Virus genome (UHGV): UHGV-0151214
Length of the DNA stretch: 12,009 nt
Reading direction: 5' to 3' (one strand)
Source: a virus
In this document: in pieces, positions 1-12,009 of the stretch
Position numbering within the stretch: position 1 is the first letter of the stretch
Layout: every line of letters starts with the position of its first letter
Made by a program: the position numbers and the translations under genes
Notes under the pieces: model-generated
What the model saw: the letters and a program-made list of their open reading frames with translations, nothing else
Databases searched by the model: none
What the model was told of the DNA's origin: nothing

Positions 1-1488
1 GACCCTTATGCGCAAGCTGGAGAAACAATTGGCGGGTATTTAGTTCCAGGAGTTGGAACGGCAGGAAGCATGGCTATAGGATCACTGGCAGAAGCCGCAA
101 ACCAGAAAGGCGATTTCGCGCAAAATGCAGCCATAAACGCCGGAGTTAACCTTGCCGCTCAGGGTGTTCTTTCCGCAGCAGCAAAGGGAATAGGGCGTGG
201 AATAACGGCTATAAAAGGCGATATCGCGCCAGAAGTAGCGAAAAAAATTGCCACCTCAGAATCGATGGGCGTGACACCTATGACATCTGATGTTATCCAG
301 CCGAAAAATGCTTTCACTCGCGGTCTTACTCAGGATGCCGAGGGGGCTTTGCTCGGGACAGGCTCAAAGCGAGCGGAGCAATATGCAACGCGTAGTAAGT
401 TGGTAAGTAATTATTTTGACCGTTTTGGTGAGTACAACCCGGATGATGTGGTGAAATCTCTGACCACCACGTTAAGGGGACGGAAGGATGCCGCTGGCGC
501 TGTTATCAATGACGTCACCAATAAAATGGGTAATGCCGCAGTTGATACCACAAATACCATGAATGCTCTGAATACAGCGATCGCAAGACAGGAACGGCTT
601 GGGACGTCTGCCAATCAAAGCCTGCTTACATCCTTGCGTAACCTACGTGAAGAATTAGCAAACCCTGCAACTGATTTGGATGTTACGTTTGATCTCTTGC
701 GTCAGCACAGAACAGCATTTAGATCTAATGTTCAGGGAGATGCTATGGTCTTCCCCAACCAGGCAAAAGCAGCTACCAATATGGTAGAGAATGCAATGTC
801 AAAAGACCTTCGTAACGCAGTTGCTAAAAACCTCGGTGCATCAGACGCAGCAAAATACCTTAAAGCAAATTCCGATTATGCAAACGTTTATAATAAGGTG
901 CTTAATAAAAACATTGCTAACAAACTCAACAAGGCAAGCAGTGAAGCCAGTCCTGAACTTATAAATACCGTTGTATTAAGCAGAAAACCATCTGACGTGA
1001 AACGAATCTGGAGCGCACTGGATGATAAAGGGAAAGATGCTATGCGTGCAGCTTACGTCAGCAAAATAGCGGAAAAGGCCGGTGACTCTCCAGCCAAGTT
1101 CATCACTGAAGTTAATAAGCTGAAATCTCAGTCAGGCGGTGAAATTTACAACACTATTTTTTCTGGAAAGCACATGAAAGAACTTGATGCTCTTCATGAA
1201 GTTCTACAGCAAACAGCAAGGTCAGACACCGCAAATGTAGTAACTCAGACGGGGCAATCGCAAGCCAACAGGATAAGGACGATTGGCGCAACTGCGACTC
1301 TTGGCGTATCAATGGGGCTTGAGGCTGGTTTCGGTGCAATGATGCGCTTGTATGAATCCAAAGCAGCAAGGAATGCTCTCTTACGCTTGGCAAACACCAA
1401 AGCAGGAACACCAGCCTATGAAAGAGCGCTAAATAATGCTGCGAATGCCATCAGACCGCTGTTTGCTACTGAGGCAACACAGCAGTGA
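1..1488 (+). CDS. DNA ejection (injection) protein, P22 gp16-like, 5'-partial; the reading frame is open from base 1 so the true start is upstream of the window
   Basis: Frame 1 has no stop from position 1 to TGA at 1486-1488 (at least 495 codons in window). The product is Ala/Asn/Lys-rich and low-complexity, typical of P22-type ejection proteins. It sits immediately upstream of an mnt/arc/ant region and tailspike, where P22 has gene 16. Assignment is by composition and synteny only. Confidence 0.55.
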
Positions 1489-1505
1489 CTAAATGCCATG
1501 GATGG

Positions 1506-1955
1506 CTATTTTTTAGTGTAATAATCATCAAAATCGCAAGAAACAGATATCACAAAACCTGAAGTCATAGAAAAAGACAGGGTTTCACATGCCTTTCCGG
1601 CTTGATGGTATGCATTGATGCCACCGTATACGGATTCTCTTGATGAAAACAATGATTTTTCACCGTTTTTTTCTACAAGAATATGCCCATCTGAATCATT
1701 AATAAACCAAACAGAAATAGAGGAGCTTTCGCCAAGGAATGTTCTGTTGAATACCATGGGTGATTTACCCTTGACAACATTTTCTGCGCGCATAATCAGC
1801 TCAGCATTTTTTTTGCTATTTTTTTGTTCTGTATAGATTTTGTCTGCCACAAAATAAACAATGGCAATGGCTAACAAAGATAGGGAAATCAGCAATGCCT
1901 TTTTAATCAATTTTTTTGCATCCCTGTAAATCTCAACTGATAATTTTTCACTCAC
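1506..1955 (-). CDS. Hypothetical membrane-anchored protein (one N-terminal TM helix, about 110-aa C-terminal domain); candidate superinfection-exclusion protein by position (SieA-like locus)
   Basis: Minus-strand ORF with likely GTG start at 1953-1955, preceded by a perfect AAGGAGG Shine-Dalgarno (plus 1961-1967) at 5-nt spacing. Hydrophobic segment ALLISLSLLAIAIVYFVA follows a Lys-rich N-terminus. The longer 221-aa version in the ORF track would overlap the divergent gene and lacks an RBS. It occupies the slot between gene 16 and mnt where P22 carries sieA. Confidence 0.55.
   Translation of the reverse strand: MSEKLSVEIYRDAKKLIKKALLISLSLLAIAIVYFVADKIYTEQKNSKKNAELIMRAENVVKGKSPMVFNRTFLGESSSISVWFINDSDGHILVEKNGEKSLFSSRESVYGGINAYHQAGKACETLSFSMTSGFVISVSCDFDDYYTKK
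1916..1944 (+). promoter_or_regulatory. Candidate sigma70 promoter for the 1986..2351 gene (TTGCAT, 17-bp spacer, GATAAT)
   Basis: TTGCAT at 1916-1921, a 17-bp spacer, GATAAT at 1939-1944, about 40 nt upstream of ATG 1986. It overlaps the 5' end of the divergent minus-strand gene. Motif match only. Confidence 0.3.
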
Positions 1956-1985
1956 ACCAACCTCCTTAGTTTTGCGCAGGATACC

Positions 1986-2351
1986 ATGAAAAAAGTTAAC
2001 ATTGGAAACGTACCAAAGATGCTCGTTCCGCTCTTTGAGAGCGGTACAATTGTGTTTTGTAGAGACTTTCCAGAATGGCAACGCCTGCATCAAAAACTTG
2101 GCGTTGACGTGCATGACTCGGACGCCAACGGAGCGTCTCATACAATGAGTAGCGAGAATGGTGTTTTGCATGTGATAGGCGTGTTCAATGGCAAACTATC
2201 TACTATTGCCCATGAGTGCGCTCACATGGCATTCGATATCTGCTCAAGGGTAGGTGTTGATGTTGAACCAGGAAGAGCCAACGAGACTTACTGCTACTTA
2301 ATGAGCAGGCTTGTTGAGTTCTGCGAGCGACATATCAAAAAGCCGGAGTGA
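1986..2351 (+). CDS. Small (121 aa) hypothetical protein with an HExxH motif (TIAHECAHMAF); possible minimal zincin-like metallopeptidase fold
   Basis: ATG at 1986 with AGGA 4-5 nt upstream; clean 121-codon ORF. The HExxH sits in a predicted helical context with Glu residues 14-20 aa downstream as possible third ligand. No family recognised by eye. Confidence 0.6.
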   Translation: MKKVNIGNVPKMLVPLFESGTIVFCRDFPEWQRLHQKLGVDVHDSDANGASHTMSSENGVLHVIGVFNGKLSTIAHECAHMAFDICSRVGVDVEPGRANETYCYLMSRLVEFCERHIKKPE

Positions 2352-2410
2352 ACCGGCTTGATTATTACTTTTTGCTGTCTGGAGTTCGCTTATCCAATAC
2401 CCAGCCATGA

Positions 2411-2647
2411 CCTGGCTTTTTAGCAACTGCAGATCGCACAATCAATGTTCCATTCCACGGAACAAATCTCTTTTTGGTCAGCATTAACAATGAACCTTAC
2501 GTTCCTATGAAACCCGTTGTAGAAGGCATGGGTATGGTTTGGGCTGCTCAATTTGTTAAATTAAAACAGAGAGTTGTCAAAGGTATTTCGGAAATCGAAA
2601 TACCTTCTGCTGGCGGCGCAGGCTGCACCAAAAAAGAAACCAATTAA
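2411..2647 (+). pseudogene. Remnant of an antirepressor (Ant-like) N-terminal domain; no ATG start at the homologous N-terminus
   Basis: Frame open from stop TGA (2408-2410) to TAA (2645-2647). Translation TINVPFHGTNLFLVSINNEPYVPMKPVVEGMGMVWAAQFVKLKQ aligns with residues about 11-55 of the intact Ant encoded at 3960..4862 ([45 protein letters not shown]). Similarity ends after KLKQ and the frame terminates about 25 codons later. Confidence 0.55.
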
Positions 2648-2690
2648 TATATTTTTCATTTTGATTCCAAATAGTTATAGGATGAAAGTT

Positions 2691-2876
2691 ATGACCATAG
2701 AAGAACGCCTGAACAACATTGAGTTGAATCAAACCCTGCTTGACCAGCGACTTTCAGATCTTGAGCTTAAAGATCTAGATGCGCAAATATTAGAAGCAGA
2801 AGCCAAGCTCTCCAGCTTAAACCACCGTAAGAAGCAAATCCGCAATAGAATTACTCAGGGACGCGGAAGCCGTTGA
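2691..2876 (+). CDS. Small hypothetical coiled-coil protein (61 aa; alternative start ATG 2682)
   Basis: ATG at 2691 with AGGA (2679-2682) 8 nt upstream. Product MTIEERLNNIELNQTLLDQRLSDLELKDLDAQILEAEAKL... has heptad-like Leu spacing and a basic C-terminus. The TTG-initiated 100-aa version in the track overlaps the ant remnant and is less likely. Confidence 0.4.
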   Translation: MTIEERLNNIELNQTLLDQRLSDLELKDLDAQILEAEAKLSSLNHRKKQIRNRITQGRGSR

Positions 2877-2885
2877 AATCCTAGT

Positions 2886-3203
2886 CTATTTTTTCTCAGA
2901 GCTCATATTGTAATAGGTGGTATAAATAGAGATTGATTTCTGACATGCTTCAAGAAATTGCTGCGGAGTCATCCCAAGCCTTGCTTGCTCTGTAGTAAGG
3001 AATCTCTGTAAGAATTCATTCCCACCTGGCATGTTTGTAGATTCTTGGAATATTGCCATTTGTTTGATTGCACCACACATACCAGCCATTTTCGAAGCTA
3101 TCATGAGGCCTTGTATTTCATCAAAACTGCTATCGTCTGATTTTGTTTCTGCGTTAGCTATGCTCGAGAGACACAGGAGCAATAGGATAGCGATGCGTTT
3201 CAT
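2886..3203 (-). CDS. Small secreted (periplasmic) protein, 105 aa, with cleavable signal peptide and two Cys in the mature part; co-transcribed and translationally coupled with mnt
   Basis: Minus-strand ATG (3203-3201) overlaps the mnt stop (3202-3200) as ATGA. N-terminus MKRIAILLLLCLSSIANA-ETK is a classic Sec signal peptide with an AxA cleavage site. Two Cys in the mature part could form a periplasmic disulfide. Confidence 0.6.
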   Translation of the reverse strand: MKRIAILLLLCLSSIANAETKSDDSSFDEIQGLMIASKMAGMCGAIKQMAIFQESTNMPGGNEFLQRFLTTEQARLGMTPQQFLEACQKSISIYTTYYNMSSEKK

Positions 3204-3451
3204 TTTTCACCGTTGCCATGCATACATTTTAACTTCTCAACCTCATGCTCAAGCTCTATCAACCGCGATGCTATAGTTGCAATATCTAGTGCTTGAATAT
3301 GTTTATTTTTTTCAGTCCATGCCTCAAGTGCTGCTACCATCTCAGCATTTAATGAACGAGAATTAGCCTCAGCCAGCTCAATAAGACGTTCCTTTATCTC
3401 TACAGGAAGCCTCAGATTCACTTGAGGGTTTTTGTACTTACGATCAGACAT
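3200..3451 (-). CDS. mnt: Mnt-like ribbon-helix-helix repressor (83 aa)
   Basis: NLRLPVEIKERLIELAEANSRSLNAEMVAAL matches the P22 Mnt N-terminal RHH region (NFRMPMEVREKLKFRAEANGRSMNSELLQIV, from memory). Same length as P22 Mnt (83 aa) and divergent from the arc-ant operon as in P22 immI. AGGA SD 8 nt upstream on the minus strand. Confidence 0.85.
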   Translation of the reverse strand: MSDRKYKNPQVNLRLPVEIKERLIELAEANSRSLNAEMVAALEAWTEKNKHIQALDIATIASRLIELEHEVEKLKCMHGNGEK

Positions 3452-3488
3452 CGGCGCATCCTGAATAATTATTTACCACAGGATATGT

Positions 3489-3537
3489 AGGTATCTATTG
3501 ACTATCAATGCGTACCTAAATACTATGTATGCGTACC
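3489..3537. promoter_or_regulatory. Divergent promoter/operator region between mnt and arc: candidate rightward promoter (TTGACT, 17-bp spacer, TACTAT), an overlapping 29-bp imperfect dyad, and two 9-bp direct repeats
   Basis: -35 TTGACT at 3498-3503, a 17-bp spacer, -10 TACTAT at 3521-3526, about 30 nt upstream of arc ATG 3557. Dyad AGGTATCTATTGACTATCAATGCGTACCT (3489-3517) matches its reverse complement at 20 of 29 positions and is centred on the -35. ATGCGTACC occurs at 3508-3516 and 3529-3537 (21-bp period). Confidence 0.45.
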
Positions 3538-3556
3538 ACATACAGCGGAGGATGCA

Positions 3557-3697
3557 ATGAAGGTAAAAACACTGCGTATGCCAGAGAAGTTAGAAAAAAT
3601 CCTTGAAGAGAAAGCAAAGGAAGAGTGTCGCTCATTTAGCGCAGAAGTAATTAAACGGGTGTTGGACAGCCTGAAAAGAGAGGGGATAACAGTATGA
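3557..3697 (+). CDS. arc: Arc-like ribbon-helix-helix repressor (46 aa)
   Basis: [46 protein letters not shown] aligns with P22 Arc (…RWPREVLDLVRKVAEENGRSVNSEIYQRVMESFKKEG, from memory). GGAGGA SD upstream of ATG 3557. Below the ORF-track size cut-off, found by manual translation. Confidence 0.8.
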   Translation: MKVKTLRMPEKLEKILEEKAKEECRSFSAEVIKRVLDSLKREGITV

Positions 3698-3897
3698 GTA
3701 AAGAATGTTGTTTCTGCGGCATTAGCGAATCAGACGCTGATCAAACATACATTTACTCTAAAGAAACAGGTCGGATGCTGTGTAGTGACTGCGTGTTGGA
3801 CATCATAAGATACAAGCATCTTGGATGTTCTGCCAGCATTAGCAATATAGGTGAAGTATACGAAGGGAAAGATATAACTGATAGAGCAGAAAGTTGA
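3694..3897 (+). CDS. Hypothetical small Cys-rich protein (67 aa; possible zinc-ribbon-like), translationally coupled to arc
   Basis: ATG 3694 overlaps the arc stop (3695-3697) as ATGA. Cys at positions 5, 6, 8, 30, 33 and 45 (CCFC … CSDC … C). It lies between arc and ant where P22, as remembered, has a short intercistronic region. Coding status uncertain. Confidence 0.4.
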
Positions 3898-3959
3898 AGC
3901 CCCAACTGCGGGAACAGTCAGGGCTTCGGTTGTCAGTAAATCCGTGGAGAAAAACCAAC

Positions 3960-4862
3960 ATGAATAGTATAGCAATTTTAGAAGCAGTGAACACCTCTTA
4001 CGTACCATTCAACGGTCAGCAAATTATCACCGCCATGGCTGCCGGAGTTGCATATGTTGCGATGAAGCCAATCGTTGAAAACCTTGGAATGAGCTGGTCA
4101 ACGCAGCAAACAAAACTCATGAAGCAGATTAGCAAATTCAACTGTGTTCATATGAACATGGTTGCCGCTGATGGGAAGCTTCGTAAGTTACTCTGCCTTC
4201 CTTTGAAGAAGTTAAATGGATGGCTGTTCAGCATCAACCCTGAGAAAGTTCGTGCTGACATCCGCGATAAACTGATTCAGTACCAGGAAGAATGCTTTAC
4301 TGTGCTGCATGACTACTGGACAAAGGGAAAGGCAGAAAATGCACGTAAGAAAACATCTGTTGATGACAGGACTCCGCTTCGTGATGCTGTAAATATGCTG
4401 GTCAGCAAAAAGCATCTAATGTACCCAGAAGCTTATGCAATGATTCATCAGCGTTTCAATGTGGAAAGTATTGAAGAGCTTGATGCATCTCAGATACCGC
4501 AAGCCGTAGAGTACATCCACAGGGTAGTGCTTGAAGGTGAGTTCATCGGCAAACAAGAAGAGTTACCAGCGCCGAAACTGGATATTAACTTCCCGATTTC
4601 ATGGTTTGCTGAAAATGCACCTTACGCCATTATCAGGCAGCAATGCGGTGATACTGTTGCTCTTGACCGCAGCGCACTCGTTGAATGCAGTCCGGCGTAT
4701 AAACTAATCGATATTCTGACAAAAGCGGGGTATGACGTTTCAGCAGTAAGAGCCGAGCTAAAAGCACTTCGCCATTTAATGGCTGAGCAAAGCTGGGCAC
4801 TTAAAGAGATAGCTTCATTCGCAGCGATACGTGATAGAGCGTGCCACTCAATTAAACTTTAA
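3960..4862 (+). CDS. ant: Antirepressor Ant (300 aa), P22 Ant-like
   Basis: Downstream of arc in the same orientation. ATG 3960 preceded by GGAG; 300 aa, the same length as P22 Ant. Its N-terminal domain is duplicated as a remnant at 2411..2647. The track's upstream start at 3894 overlaps the preceding ORF and lacks an SD. Confidence 0.8.
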
Positions 4863-4902
4863 CTACCTGCACGAAAAGTGTAGGTCAATAACCAACGCAA
4901 CG

Positions 4903-4927
4903 ACCCAGCTTCGGCTGGGTTTTTTTT
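4903..4927 (+). terminator. Rho-independent terminator downstream of ant
   Basis: Stem ACCCAGC / GCTGGGT with loop TTCG, followed by a T8 tract (4920-4927). Confidence 0.7.
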
Positions 4928-4985
4928 ATGCCCAAAATTCACCGTAGCCATGCTGCGGCCATTCCTTGTATCTGGAGCAAATTAA

Positions 4986-7928
4986 ATGACAGACATTACA
5001 GCCAATGTTGTAGTGAGTATGCCATCGCAACTCTTCACTATGGCACGTTCTTTTAAAGCCGTAGCCAATGGAAAAATTTATATCGGTAAAATTGACACTG
5101 ACCCGGTAAATCCTGAAAACCAGATTCAGGTTTGTGTAGAGAACGAAGACGGTTCTCACGTTCCTGTTTCGCAACCAATCATTATTAACGCTGCTGGTTA
5201 TCCGGTATACAACGGACAGATTGCCAAGTTTGTAACCGTGCAAGGCCATTCTATGGCTGTTTACGATGCTTATGGGGCGCAGCAGTTCTATTTTCCTAAT
5301 GTGCTGAAGTATGATCCTGATCAGTTACGGCAGCAATTAGAAGACCCAGATGGAGCGAATAAATACCCAAAACTTCAGATAGCAAGATGGAGAGACAGTT
5401 ATGATGTAAGAGGTTGGGGGGCTATTGGTGATGGTGTTCATGATGATACATCAGCTCTATCAGAATTACTTTCTGTTGCAACAGGTGGTGAAAAGATAGA
5501 TGGGCGAGGGCTTACTTTTAAAGTATCAACTCTTCCAGATGTCAGTCGATTTAAAAATGCTCGTTTTTTATTTGAGAGAATACCGGGTCAGCCTCTTTTT
5601 TATGCTTCTGAAGATTTTATCCAGGGAGAGTTATTTAAAATTACAGATACACCGTGGTACAACGCCTGGACGCAGGATAAAACGTTTGTATATGACAATG
5701 TCATCTATGCGCCTTTTATGGCTGGAGACCGCCATGGTGTAAATAACCTCCATGTTGCATGGGTTCGCTCAGGAGATGACGGGAAGACCTGGACAACGCC
5801 GGAATGGCTTACAGATTTACATGAAAACTATCCCACAGTTAACTATCACTGCATGAGTATGGGGGTTGTCAGAAATCGCCTTTTTGCTGTAATTGAGACG
5901 CGGACCGTGAGCGGAAATAAACTGCAGGTTGCAGAGTTGTGGGATCGCCCAATGAGTCGCAGCCTTCGCGTTTATGGTGGTATAACGAAAGCAGCAAATC
6001 AGCAAGTCGCTTATATTCGCATTACTGATCACGGATTATTTGCTGGTGATTTTGTCAACTTCTCAAACTCTGGTGTTACAGGTGTTACCGGGAATATGAC
6101 GGTGACTACTGTTATTGATAAAAATACCTTTACAGTTACGACGCAAAATACCCAGGATGTGGATCAGAATAACGAGGGTAGATACTGGAGTTTTGGTACA
6201 TCATTTCACTCGTCACCATGGAGAAAAACCAGTCTTGGAACTATTCCTTCTTTTGTTGACGGAAGCACTCCTGTTACTGAGATTCACAGTTTTGCGACGA
6301 TTAGCGATAACAGTTTTGCTGTTGGCTACCATAATGGTGATATTGGTCCACGCGAGCTTGGGATACTCTATTTCTCTGATGCTTTCGGTTCTCCTGGTAG
6401 CTTTGTTCGCAGACGCATACCTGTAGAATATGAGGCGAATGCATCTGAGCCATGTGTAAAATATTATGATGGCATTCTGTATCTGACGACCAGGGGGACA
6501 TTAAGTACTCAACCCGGTAGTTCATTGCACAGAAGCTCTGATTTAGGTACATCATGGAATTCTCTTCGCTTCCCAAATAATGTTCATCACTCAAACCTTC
6601 CTTTTGCCAAAGTTGGCGATGAGCTGATTATTTTTGGCAGTGAGCGCGCATTTGGTGAGTGGGAAGGAGGAGAACCTGATAACCGTTATGCAGGAAATTA
6701 TCCAAGAACATTTATGACCAGAGTTAACGTCAATGGGTGGAGTCTGGATAATGTAGAGTGGGTTAATGTTACTGATCAGATTTATCAGGGCGGAATAGTT
6801 AACTCTGCGGTTGGTGTTGGTTCAGTTTGTATCAAAGACAACTGGCTGTACTACATTTTCGGTGGGGAAGACTTTCTAAACCCATGGAGCATAGGGGATA
6901 ACAACAGAAAATATCCTTATGTTCACGATGGTCACCCGGCTGATTTGTATTGTTTCAGGGTGAAAATTAAACAGGAAGAATTTGTTTCAAGGGATTTTGT
7001 CTACGGAGCCACTCCTAACAGAACGCTTCCTACTTTTATGTCGACGTCAGGCGTGAGGACGGTTCCTGTACCCGTTGATTTCACAGATGATGTTGCCGTC
7101 CAGTCACTGACTGTCCATGCAGGTACATCAGGACAAGTTCGCGCGGAAGTCAAACTTGAGGGTAATTACGCCATTATTGCGAAGAAAGTACCGTCTGATG
7201 ATGTTACCGCTCAGAGATTAATCGTTAGCGGCGGTGAAACAACGTCTTCAGCAGATGGTGCAATGATAACGTTGCATGGTTCCGGAAGCAGTACTCCACG
7301 TCGCGCGGTATATAACGCACTCGAACATCTTTTTGAGAACGGAGATGTTAAACCTTATCTTGATAATGTAAATGCTCTTGGTGGTCCGGGAAACAGGTTC
7401 TCGACAGTTTATCTTGGCTCCAATCCTGTGGTTACCAGTGACGGAACATTAAAGACAGAGCCGGTCTCTCCTGACGAAGCATTGCTGGATGCCTGGGGTG
7501 ACGTCAGGTATATCGCTTATAAATGGCTGAACGCTGTCGCTATAAAGGGGGAAGAAGGGGCGAGGATACATCATGGTGTAATCGCGCAGCAACTTCGTGA
7601 TGTTCTTATTTCTCACGGACTCATGGAAGAAGAAAGCACAACATGCCGCTATGCCTTTCTTTGCTATGACGATTATCCCGCAGTATATGATGACGTCATT
7701 ACTGGCCAAAGGGAAATGCCGCTGACTGATAATGACGGGAGCATCATTGTTGATGAGGATGATAATCCAGTGATGGTAATGGAAGACATCATTGAGCGCG
7801 TTGAAATAACGCCAGCAGGATCTAGATGGGGGGTCAGACCTGATCTCTTATTCTATATCGAGGCAGCATGGCAGCGCAGAGAAATGGATAAGATAAAAGA
7901 GCGGGTTCAGTCTCTGGAAGAACGTTAA
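4986..7928 (+). CDS. Tailspike protein (980 aa): P22-type head-binding N-terminal domain, sialidase-like catalytic region with two Asp-boxes (probable endosialidase, GH58-like), and C-terminal self-cleaving chaperone domain (peptidase S74-like)
   Basis: N-terminal about 110 aa ([11 protein letters not shown]…[22 protein letters not shown]…VLKYDPDQ) closely matches the P22 gp9 head-binding domain. Asp-boxes SGDDGKTW (aa 262-269, nt 5769-5792) and SSDLGTSW (aa 517-524, nt 6534-6557). [15 protein letters not shown] motif is also present. The C-terminus has S-DGTLK (Ser818 at nt 7437-7439) and [11 protein letters not shown], resembling the autoproteolytic chaperone domain of endosialidases and tail fibres. 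Confidence 0.85.
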
Positions 7929-7954
7929 AAAAAAGCCCGCAAAATATTGCGGGC
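7927..7954. terminator. Hairpin terminator at the tailspike 3' end; the U-tract is on the minus-strand side, so it is stronger for leftward transcription
   Basis: A8 run (7927-7934), then stem GCCCGCAA (7935-7942), loop AATA, stem TTGCGGGC (7947-7954). On the minus strand this reads hairpin plus T8. On the plus strand the hairpin is followed by ATCAAAAACGG. Confidence 0.5.
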
Positions 7955-8234
7955 ATCAAAAACGGAGTTGGTGAAAAGTTATCTTTGAATTCTATCATGA
8001 ATCAGTACGTATTTTAAATACATGTTCAGGTTTATTACACCATAGCATTATTAAATACAAAATTAAGTCTATGGTTCCTGTACAACTGCCCCCACTCTGC
8101 TGGCTCGTTCTGTAAAATCATTAGTACTTTTATTGAGATATATGATATGGAACAATAATGATTCATATATGGTTTACTATGCGGGTTTAGTCATCAATAA
8201 TTGACTGGCTTATAGATAGTAAACAGGAGAAAGT

Positions 8235-8639
8235 ATGTCTGCTCAAGTAACAAGTGAGCAATTAAATCAGTTGCTTAGTTTTGGTTCTCTTGCTGCAGTT
8301 ATTGCAGGTGTCCCTCCGGAGGTTGCTTTAGGGGCTTTGGCTGGGGCGGTAATTTTTGTTACCTCTGCAGTAGAGTACCCTATCCGTCGCCGGGTGCTCC
8401 TGTCGATGCTCAGCTTTCTTTGCGGCCTTCTCTTTTACAAACCAGCAGCATCAATTCTTATCGGCATAGCCAGCCTGATCCCTACCATCACGCAGGACTC
8501 TTTTGAAAAAGGGATTGTTTTCTCTGCAGGCGCATTCGTGTCAGCAATTGTCGCTGTGCGTATTGGTATATGGCTCTATCACCGTTCCGATAATCCACGC
8601 GAGTTAATTCCGGGGAGAAAAGACGATGGTAACGCATGA
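8235..8639 (+). CDS. Holin-like or antiholin-like membrane protein (134 aa, about 4 hydrophobic segments, charged C-terminal tail)
   Basis: ATG 8235 with AGGAG 7 nt upstream. Multiple TM-length hydrophobic stretches and a charged C-terminus ([19 protein letters not shown]). First gene of a cluster with a second holin-like gene, endolysin and spanins. Confidence 0.5.
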   Translation: MSAQVTSEQLNQLLSFGSLAAVIAGVPPEVALGALAGAVIFVTSAVEYPIRRRVLLSMLSFLCGLLFYKPAASILIGIASLIPTITQDSFEKGIVFSAGAFVSAIVAVRIGIWLYHRSDNPRELIPGRKDDGNA

Positions 8640-8934
8640 GTTTTTTTTGCTTATCACTAATGCAGTTATTTGCACTGGCATAGCAATTCGCGTTGTCACA
8701 TTCCGGCGTAACGGCTCTCAACATCGAAGGTGGGGAGGATGGCTTGCTTATTTCCTGATTGTTGCTGCGGCCAGTATTCCTGTTCGAGTCGCCTATGCAA
8801 TCTGGTTACGTACGCCAATGGCTGTGGATTTATCTGAGGTCATTATCAACGCTGTCATGCTGGCTGCGGTTATTAAAACGCGCGGTAACGTCGTTCAAAT
8901 TTTTAAAGTATCGAGGTCTAAACATGGAGATTAA
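8626..8934 (+). CDS. Putative holin (102 aa, 3 TM segments, basic C-terminal tail)
   Basis: Three hydrophobic segments and C-terminal [19 protein letters not shown]. Overlaps the preceding gene by 14 nt and the endolysin start by 11 nt. Confidence 0.6.
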
Positions 8935-9553
8935 ACAATTCCAGCGAGCTGCTGGTATCAGCGAGGCACTGGCCGCACGCTGGTTCTCGCATATAACTTC
9001 TGCGATGAAAGAGTTTGGTATCAGCAAAGCAGAAGATCAGGCAATGTTTATTGCTCAAGTCGGGCATGAGTCTGGGGGCTTCACCAGGTTGCAGGAGAAT
9101 TTCAACTACAGTGTCAGCGGACTGGCTAACTTCGTTCGGGCTGGGCGTCTCACTCAGGGGCAGGCTAATGCACTGGGGCGCCGTGCTGGTGAACCACCAT
9201 TGCCACTTGAGCGCCAGCGCGCGATCGCAAATCTGGTATACAGCAAACGCATGGGGAACAATGCCCCTGGTGATGGCTGGAATTACCGAGGGCGCGGACT
9301 TATCCAGATTACCGGTTTGAATAACTATCGTGATTGCGGAAACGGTCTGAAGGTTGACCTGCTGGAGAGCCCTGAACTGCTGGCGCAGGACGAATATGCG
9401 GCTCGTAGCGCGGCGTGGTTCTTCGCCAGCAAAGGATGCATGAAGTATACCGGCGATATTGCACGTGTAACTCTGATTATCAATGGTGGCCGGAACGGCA
9501 TCGACGACCGGCGAGCGCGGTACATCACTGCCAGTAAGGTGCTGGCGGTATGA
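8924..9553 (+). CDS. Endolysin, glycoside hydrolase family 19 (chitinase-like phage lysozyme), 209 aa
   Basis: GH19 signatures [12 protein letters not shown] (catalytic Glu in HES), a second Glu in LQENFNY, and [19 protein letters not shown] 8924 preceded by GAGG. The track's longer version from 8759 reads through the holin in a frame with no lysozyme similarity. Confidence 0.85.
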
Positions 9554-10032
9554 TCTGGGCATTCGTAAAAGCATACTGGAAACAGTTTCTTATCGTGGCA
9601 GTGCTTGCTGTTCTGGTCATATCAGGAGTGGTTGCCTGGAATATACACGGCAGTCGCCAGTACGATGCCGGGTATGCTCAGGCGGAAGAAGACCGCAAAG
9701 CCGAAGAAGACAAAGTTCGTCAGTACTACGAACAGGAGAAAGTGACCAATGAACGTGAAGCTCAGCAGAGGATCGACCAGGCGCGCAATGATGCTCTTGA
9801 TGCTGCCGCTAGCGCTGGCCGGTTGCAGCAACAACTCTTTGCCATCCGTGAGCAGCTCAGGCAGTATAACGCCATTGTCGGCGCTGGGTCGTCAGCCGCA
9901 GACACCGGAGTTTTGCTTGCCGACGTGCTCAGCAAATCTCTCGAGAGAAACAGACAACTGGCAGAGTATGCTGACCGGGCAGCCGAAGCCGGAAGAGTCT
10001 GCGAAAAACAGTACGACACTTTGACCAGATAG
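9550..10032 (+). CDS. i-spanin (Rz-like inner-membrane spanin subunit), 160 aa
   Basis: ATGA overlap with the endolysin stop. N-terminal TM ([18 protein letters not shown]), a long charged coiled-coil periplasmic region, and a Cys near the C-terminus. Sits immediately after the endolysin and contains an embedded lipoprotein ORF. Confidence 0.75.
9788..10024 (+). CDS. o-spanin (Rz1-like outer-membrane lipoprotein), embedded in the +1 frame of the i-spanin gene
   Basis: [13 protein letters not shown] has a lipobox (LAGC) and a signal-peptidase II site. The mature part is about 58 aa, Ser/Pro-rich with additional Cys. It lies entirely within 9550..10032 in another frame. Start taken at ATG 9788; the track's 9749 start adds an unlikely N-terminal extension. 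Confidence 0.65.
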   Translation: MMLLMLPLALAGCSNNSLPSVSSSGSITPLSALGRQPQTPEFCLPTCSANLSRETDNWQSMLTGQPKPEESAKNSTTL

Positions 10033-10184
10033 CATGGCATTTTTCATGGTACTGATTTCCGGTGACGGTATATAAAACGGTACGGGAAAAATTGAGATTT
10101 GGAAAAATGTTATCACTCAATTGGTTATGGTTATCGTAAATAATTGAGTGGAATGATTTGACCCTGCACTATGAATGAACAAAA

Positions 10185-11806: not shown

Positions 11807-12009
11807 ACTGGTTGCCTGACTCACAAAAGGTTCCTTGATGTATGTCCCACGCTGTGGACGGTACTTACATTAAGGCACAACAGGACAAAATGGTCAATTC
11901 TTCGTTATGTAAAAAAGCGTCAGTGGATACATATTTTAATGTTATGGAAGTTAATTTAATTATTTACAATGATGATGTAATAATGATGAATTAACATGAT
12001 AAACGTAAT

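Follow-up and report, generated by a model that had tools for sequence, protein, structure and literature searches.

The window analysed here, 12,009 nucleotides of viral DNA, comprises in its positions 1..7899 a P22-like (Lederbergvirus) prophage stretch of the CUS-3 type that extends from the DNA-injection gene 16 to the tailspike gene. The region between these two genes in P22-like phages was named the 'ant moron' by Villafane et al. (PMC2629481). Its order in the window is the end of gene 16, a 149-aa gene, hkcC, a terminator, a short open frame with a fragment of an antirepressor gene, a 61-aa gene, a 105-aa gene, mnt, arc, a 67-aa gene, sar, ant and an endosialidase gene (Table 1).

Table 1. 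Features of the ant moron and of the antirepressor gene fragment within it (positions are those of the window)
Feature	Position	Strand	Remarks
149-aa gene	1506..1955	-	
hkcC	about 2019..2351	+	
Terminator hairpin	2340..2359		bidirectional; between hkcC and the fragment; t-mnt in P22-pbi, 'terminator' in HK620
orf59a/hkcD 3' remnant	2365..2419	-	last 17 codons (KPGHGWVLDKRTPDSKK) and stop; first 42 codons and start gone
Chimeric 41-aa TTG ORF	2365..2490	-	orf59a remnant joined to antisense ant, an accidental ORF; in the ORF list
Open frame	2411..2647	+	78 codons and stop (TAA, 2645-2647)
Left junction	2417..2421		1-nt overlap at 2419 in a run of five T; from alignment and blastn end points
Putative remnant of donor sar promoter (Psar)	2417..2445	-	-35 TTGATT (2440..2445) and 17-nt spacer intact
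ant-derived DNA proper	2419..2616	+	198 nt; nt 9-206 (codons 4-69) of a foreign P22_AR_N-type ant
Candidate starts in the open frame	TTG 2474; ATG 2507; ATG 2528; ATG 2534	+	57 aa from TTG 2474, 46 aa from ATG 2507, 37 aa from ATG 2534
Chimeric 32-aa ORF	2561..2659	-	first 17 codons (2608..2659) a Kapi1_060-like signal-peptide start, MKNILIGF.FGAACAAS; rest antisense to ant
Right junction	2608..2616		9-nt microhomology TGCTGGCGG
Non-ant tail of the open frame	2617..2647	+	AGCTKKETN and stop; antisense to the initial codons of the truncated signal-peptide gene
61-aa gene	2691..2876	+	intact; 'hemolysin XhlA family' in relatives (many E. coli records, Kapi1; CDD)
105-aa signal-peptide gene	2886..3203	-	3' of mnt on the same strand
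mnt (resident)	3200..3451	-	Arc-family repressor; PF03869
arc (resident)	3557..3697	+	
67-aa gene	3694..3897	+	between arc and ant
sar (resident)	3892..3959	-	antisense RNA directly upstream of the ant start; Rfam RF00262, 95.6 bits, E = 1.5e-20
ant (resident)	3960..4862	+	intact, 300 aa; P22_AR_N positions 2-114 of 115, E = 2.9e-45
Endosialidase tailspike gene	4986..7928	+	

The resident immI region is complete. Its Ant protein possesses the P22_AR_N domain and lacks P22_AR_C, and its sar RNA, which scores well above the gathering score of RF00262 (43), shares 6 nt (3892..3897) with the 3' end of the 67-aa gene. The product of this 67-aa gene is cysteine-rich (CCFCG...CSDC, zinc-ribbon-like) and has no match in Pfam; the gene is absent from P22, and similar genes of 67-73 aa occupy the same position in E. 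coli CUPS04 and other contigs. The 61-aa gene, for which Pfam gives no match at E <= 0.01, converges on the 105-aa gene with 9 bp between the two stop codons, which leaves no room for a terminator. The sequences that border very different ant alleles are conserved across NRG 857C, Kapi1, P22 and CUS-3 (79-84% identity for 3895..3975, 97-98% for 4888..4999), which suggests that homologous recombination within these conserved sequences exchanges ant alleles as cassettes; the bsq1 and bsq2 sequences annotated in CUS-3 may be compared.

The open frame follows directly on a TGA codon (2408-2410), its first in-frame ATG is the one at 2507, and the ATG of the backbone at 2407 is out of frame with it. 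In BLASTP, residues 7-57 of its 78-aa translation match residues 9-59 of the resident Ant (20 of 51 identical, 39%; E = 4e-11), and in Pfam it matches positions 2-58 of the 115 positions of P22_AR_N (PF10547) with E = 5.9e-14 and 52.7 bits, the cut-off of the family being 30.7 bits. By these scores the likeness to Ant is far beyond chance, and the similarity proposed in a sequence-only reading of this DNA, there given as Ant residues about 11-55, was roughly correct in extent and holds under proper scoring. That reading was also right that the frame lacks an ATG at the homologous N-terminus, nucleotides 1-8 of ant being gone. Its description of a frame that diverges from Ant and then stops is accurate as to the stop; the apparent divergence is a change of gene, as the fragment leaves ant at codon 69 and runs for 10 codons on the reverse strand of another gene until the stop. 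The placement 'upstream of mnt' is loose, since the 61-aa and 105-aa genes intervene.

Sensitive blastn against phage records splits positions 2380-2900 into three sharply bordered blocks. P22, HK620 and relatives match as far as 2419; the ant genes of phage YYZ-2008 and other Stx phages match 2419..2616 with 92.9% DNA identity over 198 nt, beginning at base 9 of the 924-nt coding sequence of YYZ-2008; and phage Kapi1 matches from 2608 on with 96.3% identity. The allele closest to the middle block is the ant in the immI region of a P22-like prophage of E. coli NRG 857C (96.9% over 196 nt), to which the fragment is identical without a break for about 126 nt. Full-length ant genes of this type (93-97% DNA identity) are held by 314 complete E. 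coli genomes and also by many Stx phages. Codon by codon, the fragment follows the Stx allele in codons 4-11 and the NRG allele in codons 12-69, and this mosaic points to an unsampled recombinant allele of the Stx/NRG ant group as the donor. Private substitutions number one or two at most: F55V is the only change that is absent from every compared allele and is clearly private, and the residue change I6T is also found in the CUPS04 allele. Two other sources were considered for the fragment. An Stx phage as the specific donor is weakened by the greater closeness of the NRG 857C prophage allele and by the mosaic of both types. A tandem duplication of the resident ant was rejected, because the resident gene has no similarity to the fragment at the DNA level and is related to it only by the 39% protein identity, in contrast to the 93-97% DNA identity of the foreign alleles.

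Both joints of the fragment are abrupt and non-homologous, and both lie inside genes rather than at gene borders. At the left joint the backbone match of CUPS04 (as of P22 and HK620) ends at 2419, the base at which the match to the YYZ-2008 ant begins. At the right joint (right-junction sequence ATACCTTCTGCTGGCGGCGCAGG) the match to Kapi1 and CUPS04 begins at 2608 and the match to ant continues to 2616; the shared nonanucleotide TGCTGGCGG is common to nt 198-206 of ant and to the 5' part of a minus-strand signal-peptide gene. The flanks of the fragment are collinear in E. coli CUPS04, with 97.7% identity over 1952-2419 and 97.0% over 2608-3698. In place of the ant piece, the collinear relatives (CUPS04, phage Kapi1 and P22) have 366 bp, which together with their flanks encode two intact minus-strand genes, the 59-aa orf59a/hkcD and a 60-aa signal-peptide gene. 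The orf59a products of P22 and CUPS04 are identical at 58 of 59 residues, which identifies a conserved gene lost at this site. The 60-aa gene is annotated as Kapi1_060 in Kapi1 (L003 2370..2552, minus strand) and is unannotated yet intact in the CUPS04 RefSeq record (L002 2776..2958, minus strand). The window has lost two-thirds of each gene, the 5' part of orf59a and the 3' part of the 60-aa gene, so that both are destroyed.

These comparisons bear out the proposal that the frame derives from a second antirepressor-type gene, and they supply the intact ancestor, a foreign allele and not a copy of the resident one. The deletion end points that the sequence-only reading had asked for are placed to the base at 2419 and at 2608-2616. 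An intact small ant-type gene at this position in related genomes would have spoken against a remnant; the relatives have there the two minus-strand genes, unrelated to ant, whose place the fragment has taken. Between the two origins that had been offered, recombination or decay, the two illegitimate joints and the replacement of native DNA favour recombination, and a count of no more than two private substitutions does not favour slow decay.

The fragment departs from a functional Ant in every defining respect, namely the domain, the C-terminus, the start codon with its ribosome site, and the presence of arc and sar upstream. It contains positions 2-58 of the 115 of P22_AR_N, a domain that spans positions 2-114 in both the resident Ant and the NRG 857C Ant, and it has no C-terminal domain (P22_AR_C or an alternative, about 180 residues). 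It has what is expected of a gene remnant: high DNA identity to an intact gene, abrupt breakpoints, collinear relatives without the insert, and truncated flanking genes. The arc-Pant-sar control region, which stands before every intact copy of ant, is missing here together with nt 1-8, the start codon, the ribosome site and some 240 downstream codons; upstream of the fragment are found hkcC, the terminator and the tail of orf59a, and neither arc nor sar.

Signals for expression of the fragment are few. A promoter scan of the plus strand from the terminator at 2340-2359 to the ORF detected no sigma-70-like promoter, and an Rfam search detected no sar-like RNA or other family in the fragment and nothing near 2419. 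The Psar of P22 is annotated at nt 7-35 of ant, which align with window 2417..2445, and this stretch would accordingly represent the Psar of the donor. Its -10 element (2417..2422) is cut by the left joint, TAAACT of the donor type having become TAAAAA in the window with loss of the final T, and the promoter scan does not report it; it is probably a dead promoter. The P22-pbi t-mnt terminator (L012 913..935) maps to window 2337..2359, and in the P22 annotation the minus-strand transcript of mnt ends at t-mnt, with the antisense strand of the fragment in its path; the antisense strand would thus be the likelier RNA in a lysogen. A possible minus-strand RNA from 2425 to 2330 has unexceptional folding (z = -1.3). 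Late transcription in P22-like phages crosses the ant moron to the tailspike gene and reads through terminators (PMC2629481), and the sense strand of the fragment is therefore probably transcribed late in infection. Passive transcription in both directions, sense from the antiterminated late operon and antisense from the mnt operon, may thus be the lot of this DNA.

The arrangement is not confined to one assembly. An exact-protein look-up found the 57-aa ORF on 7 other contigs, and the five that were listed come from five samples and from both Logan and ENA assemblies. Their neighbouring genes are the same in all cases, and their DNA is 99.8-100% identical to the window, with 100% identity across the fragment and its joints; contig L007 has no mismatch to window 1..6127. 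The scar belongs to one circulating prophage lineage. It was not encountered outside this lineage: exact-pattern scans for both junctions had no match in the representative-genome and viral collections, a scan for the right junction had none in the JGI metagenome collection, and among complete E. coli genomes none covers at least 80% of window 2380-2900 and none has the scar arrangement. An assembly or sequencing artefact made of chimeric reads from two prophages has next to no probability, even though the window looks hybrid further to the right, within the endosialidase gene, since different samples, assembled independently in Logan and in ENA, show the same joints with 100% identity; the scar is real.

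The hybrid character of the window as a whole is a separate matter. Positions 1..6127 correspond to the CUS-3-like Lederbergvirus contig L007, and from about 6287 the pattern of mismatches turns to that of the Uetakevirus phage vB_EcoP_ZX5 (99.6% identity over 5507..10158), which places the switch at about 5912-6287. Past 7899 the window departs from the CUS-3-type contigs, as compared to its end at 12009: the endosialidase gene is followed by the holin/endolysin/DUF2514 lysis cassette of ZX5 and by TL-2011b-like genes, and not by the neuO/integrase region of P22-like phages. The window is either a real recombinant between two phage genera, joined in their shared endosialidase gene, or an assembly chimera.

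It is very unlikely that the remnant functions as a mini-protein, which would start at TTG 2474 (57 aa), ATG 2507 (46 aa) or ATG 2534 (37 aa) and, as a half N-domain of Ant, might be a decoy or dominant-negative partner of full-length Ant or of a repressor. All 78 codons are still open, and on the 7 contigs gene prediction yields a 57-aa protein with a match to P22_AR_N; the frame has no start at the homologous N-terminus, and the C-terminal tail of any product is the accidental antisense of another gene. The Shine-Dalgarno duplex energies are -3.5 kcal/mol for TTG 2474, +0.4 for ATG 2507, -3.3 for ATG 2528 and -6.2 for ATG 2534, in comparison with -9.5 for arc, -8.3 for the 67-aa gene and -6.4 for the resident ant. 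The value for TTG 2474 is no worse than those of real neighbours with weak sites, the 105-aa gene (-3.0) and hkcC, and such weak values at real nearby genes make this scoring indecisive. The favourable value of ATG 2534 is due to a GAAGG 7 nt upstream, but both this motif and the internal starts exist in intact ant genes and so were inherited rather than evolved. The known copies are essentially identical, with the one clearly private substitution, and purifying selection on them may be present or absent; location of the sense strand within the late operon (PMC2629481) makes a peptide possible. Such a peptide would amount to half of a compact domain, short of strands at one end or at both. AlphaFold models the N-domain of the resident Ant (mean pLDDT 77) with six strands and five helices, of which the fragment would lack the final strand and the final two helices; the product from TTG 2474 would in addition be missing the first two and a half strands, and independent folding therefore seems unlikely. 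A sequence search found no solved structure of Ant. Relatives of the N-domain model in Foldseek (Mbp1/APSES DNA-binding and Ski/Dachshund domains) were weak, with E >= 0.03, and were set aside. A protein search gave no indication that a short ORF with a start of its own is conserved in diverged genomes, as it returned the 57-aa ORF from one lineage only, and a look-up of the ATG-2507 product found no called gene on record. A 57-aa product from TTG 2474 (or one from ATG 2507) is formally open, and nothing supports it.

Other short proteins with P22_AR_N do not form a conserved mini-gene family with this one. P0003 (73 aa) and P0015 (50 aa) were rejected as members: their genes (L013 5001..5222, L014 3159..3377, L015 5001..5153) stop at a contig end or no more than about 25 bases from one, and they share an odd tail, NRPGNPGD, that is attached at different positions of ant, so that they are probably artefacts of assembly ends and not true truncated genes. 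P0010 (115 aa) was rejected as a different truncation in another type of prophage. It is a truncated P22_AR_N ORF with an unrelated end sequence, present on 11 contigs of another E. coli prophage type (such as L016 5001..5348, L017 1026..1373 and L018 578..925), where it adjoins tail-fibre genes and, in L018, also a lysis cassette. Its existence indicates that 5' remnants of ant arise repeatedly.

An action as RNA is highly improbable. A minus-strand RNA made in the lysogen would be antisense to nt 9-206 of the mRNA of NRG- or Stx-type ant and would dampen the antirepressors of co-resident or superinfecting phages; its source could be read-through from Pmnt or from the promoter of the signal-peptide gene to t-mnt (2340-2359), or the crippled Psar remnant. 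The fragment does lie in the path of the mnt-operon transcript, the end of which in P22 is t-mnt, and a scan of the minus strand from mnt to the fragment found no terminator-like site, but the convergent 61-aa gene may hinder read-through, and the Psar remnant, deprived of the final T of its -10 element, does not score as a promoter. The fragment would pair with a circulating ant allele at 93-97% identity, perfectly over about 126 nt, and the natural regulator of ant, sar, is itself an antisense RNA; the ribosome site of ant, which is the target of sar, nevertheless lies outside the fragment. The case is wholly inferential, and accident alone explains the structure fully. More generally, it is very unlikely indeed that the ant piece has been kept because it is useful, whether as a 198-nt antisense RNA against the 5' coding sequence of a rival ant allele of NRG 857C or Stx-phage type, as a patch of homology, or as a 57-aa half-domain peptide that interferes with Ant.

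The feature is thus very probably a recombination scar, inert and without function, in which 198 bp from the 5' part of a foreign ant are lodged in the ant moron of a CUS-3-like prophage of the P22-like group. With no promoter, start or ribosome site and half of one domain, the remnant is most likely inert passenger DNA. A plausible origin of the scar is an exchange between two ant morons, in which recombination at TGCTGGCGG would have linked the ant of the foreign moron with the resident signal-peptide gene, the other side possibly being anchored by homology downstream of ant (window 4888-4999). The result of this first joint would have been a transient double immI region, from which a second illegitimate deletion, extending from orf59a to nt 9 of ant, would have removed the redundant copy of mnt-arc-sar. 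Headful packaging limits genome length in P22-like phages and may have favoured such a shortening deletion. The junction scans of the representative-genome, viral and metagenome collections and the complete E. coli genomes yielded no intermediate in which immI is duplicated, and the two-step route is therefore a conjecture in which the order of events is unproven.

Remnants of this kind have precedents. Villafane et al. 2008 (PMC2629481) describe the ant moron as a region in 'rapid flux' and report both truncated genes and 'degraded ant genes' for HK620 and Scho1, and the immI region of phage L is possibly degrading (PMC8022706). The scar resembles the degraded ant genes of HK620 and Scho1 in its location between gene 16 and the tailspike gene, in its gene family, and in being a leftover of flux with truncated neighbours. 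It differs from them in that it adjoins an immI region (mnt, arc, sar and ant) that is complete and apparently functional, derives from an ant allele other than the resident one, and has both joints resolved to the base. Relative to the intact Ant of NRG 857C (WP_000204917) and of YYZ-2008 (YP_002274201), the fragment has 93-97% DNA identity over nt 9-206 with the frame kept, but it comprises only 66 of 307 codons, without the second half of P22_AR_N and the whole of P22_AR_C. The window has a full resident copy of the mnt-arc-sar-ant immI region of P22, and the fragment keeps the -35 element and spacer that correspond to Psar; unlike the P22 region, the fragment has no arc, Pant, operators or sar-coding DNA, and its Psar -10 element is disrupted. 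Homology-facilitated or microhomology-mediated illegitimate recombination has been proposed for the junctions of mosaic phage genomes. The scar shares with such junctions its abrupt breakpoints within genes and its overlaps of 1 nt and 9 nt, whereas its mechanism is deduced from the sequences of the end points alone.

As biology the scar matters little, being an ordinary one of a type already described in the ant moron. It is a clean, base-resolved example of how illegitimate recombination reshuffles this region, here with the loss of two accessory genes, and the 9-nt microhomology joint and the foreign fragment record a past meeting of two different immI regions. For annotation, the gene-called 57-aa 'P22_AR_N' protein should be flagged as a pseudogene fragment. 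The scar would be relevant to competition between phages only if the remnant acts as an antisense RNA or as an interfering peptide against the antirepressors of other phages; an antisense RNA, if true, would shield the lysogen from induction by the antirepressors of co-resident or incoming phages.
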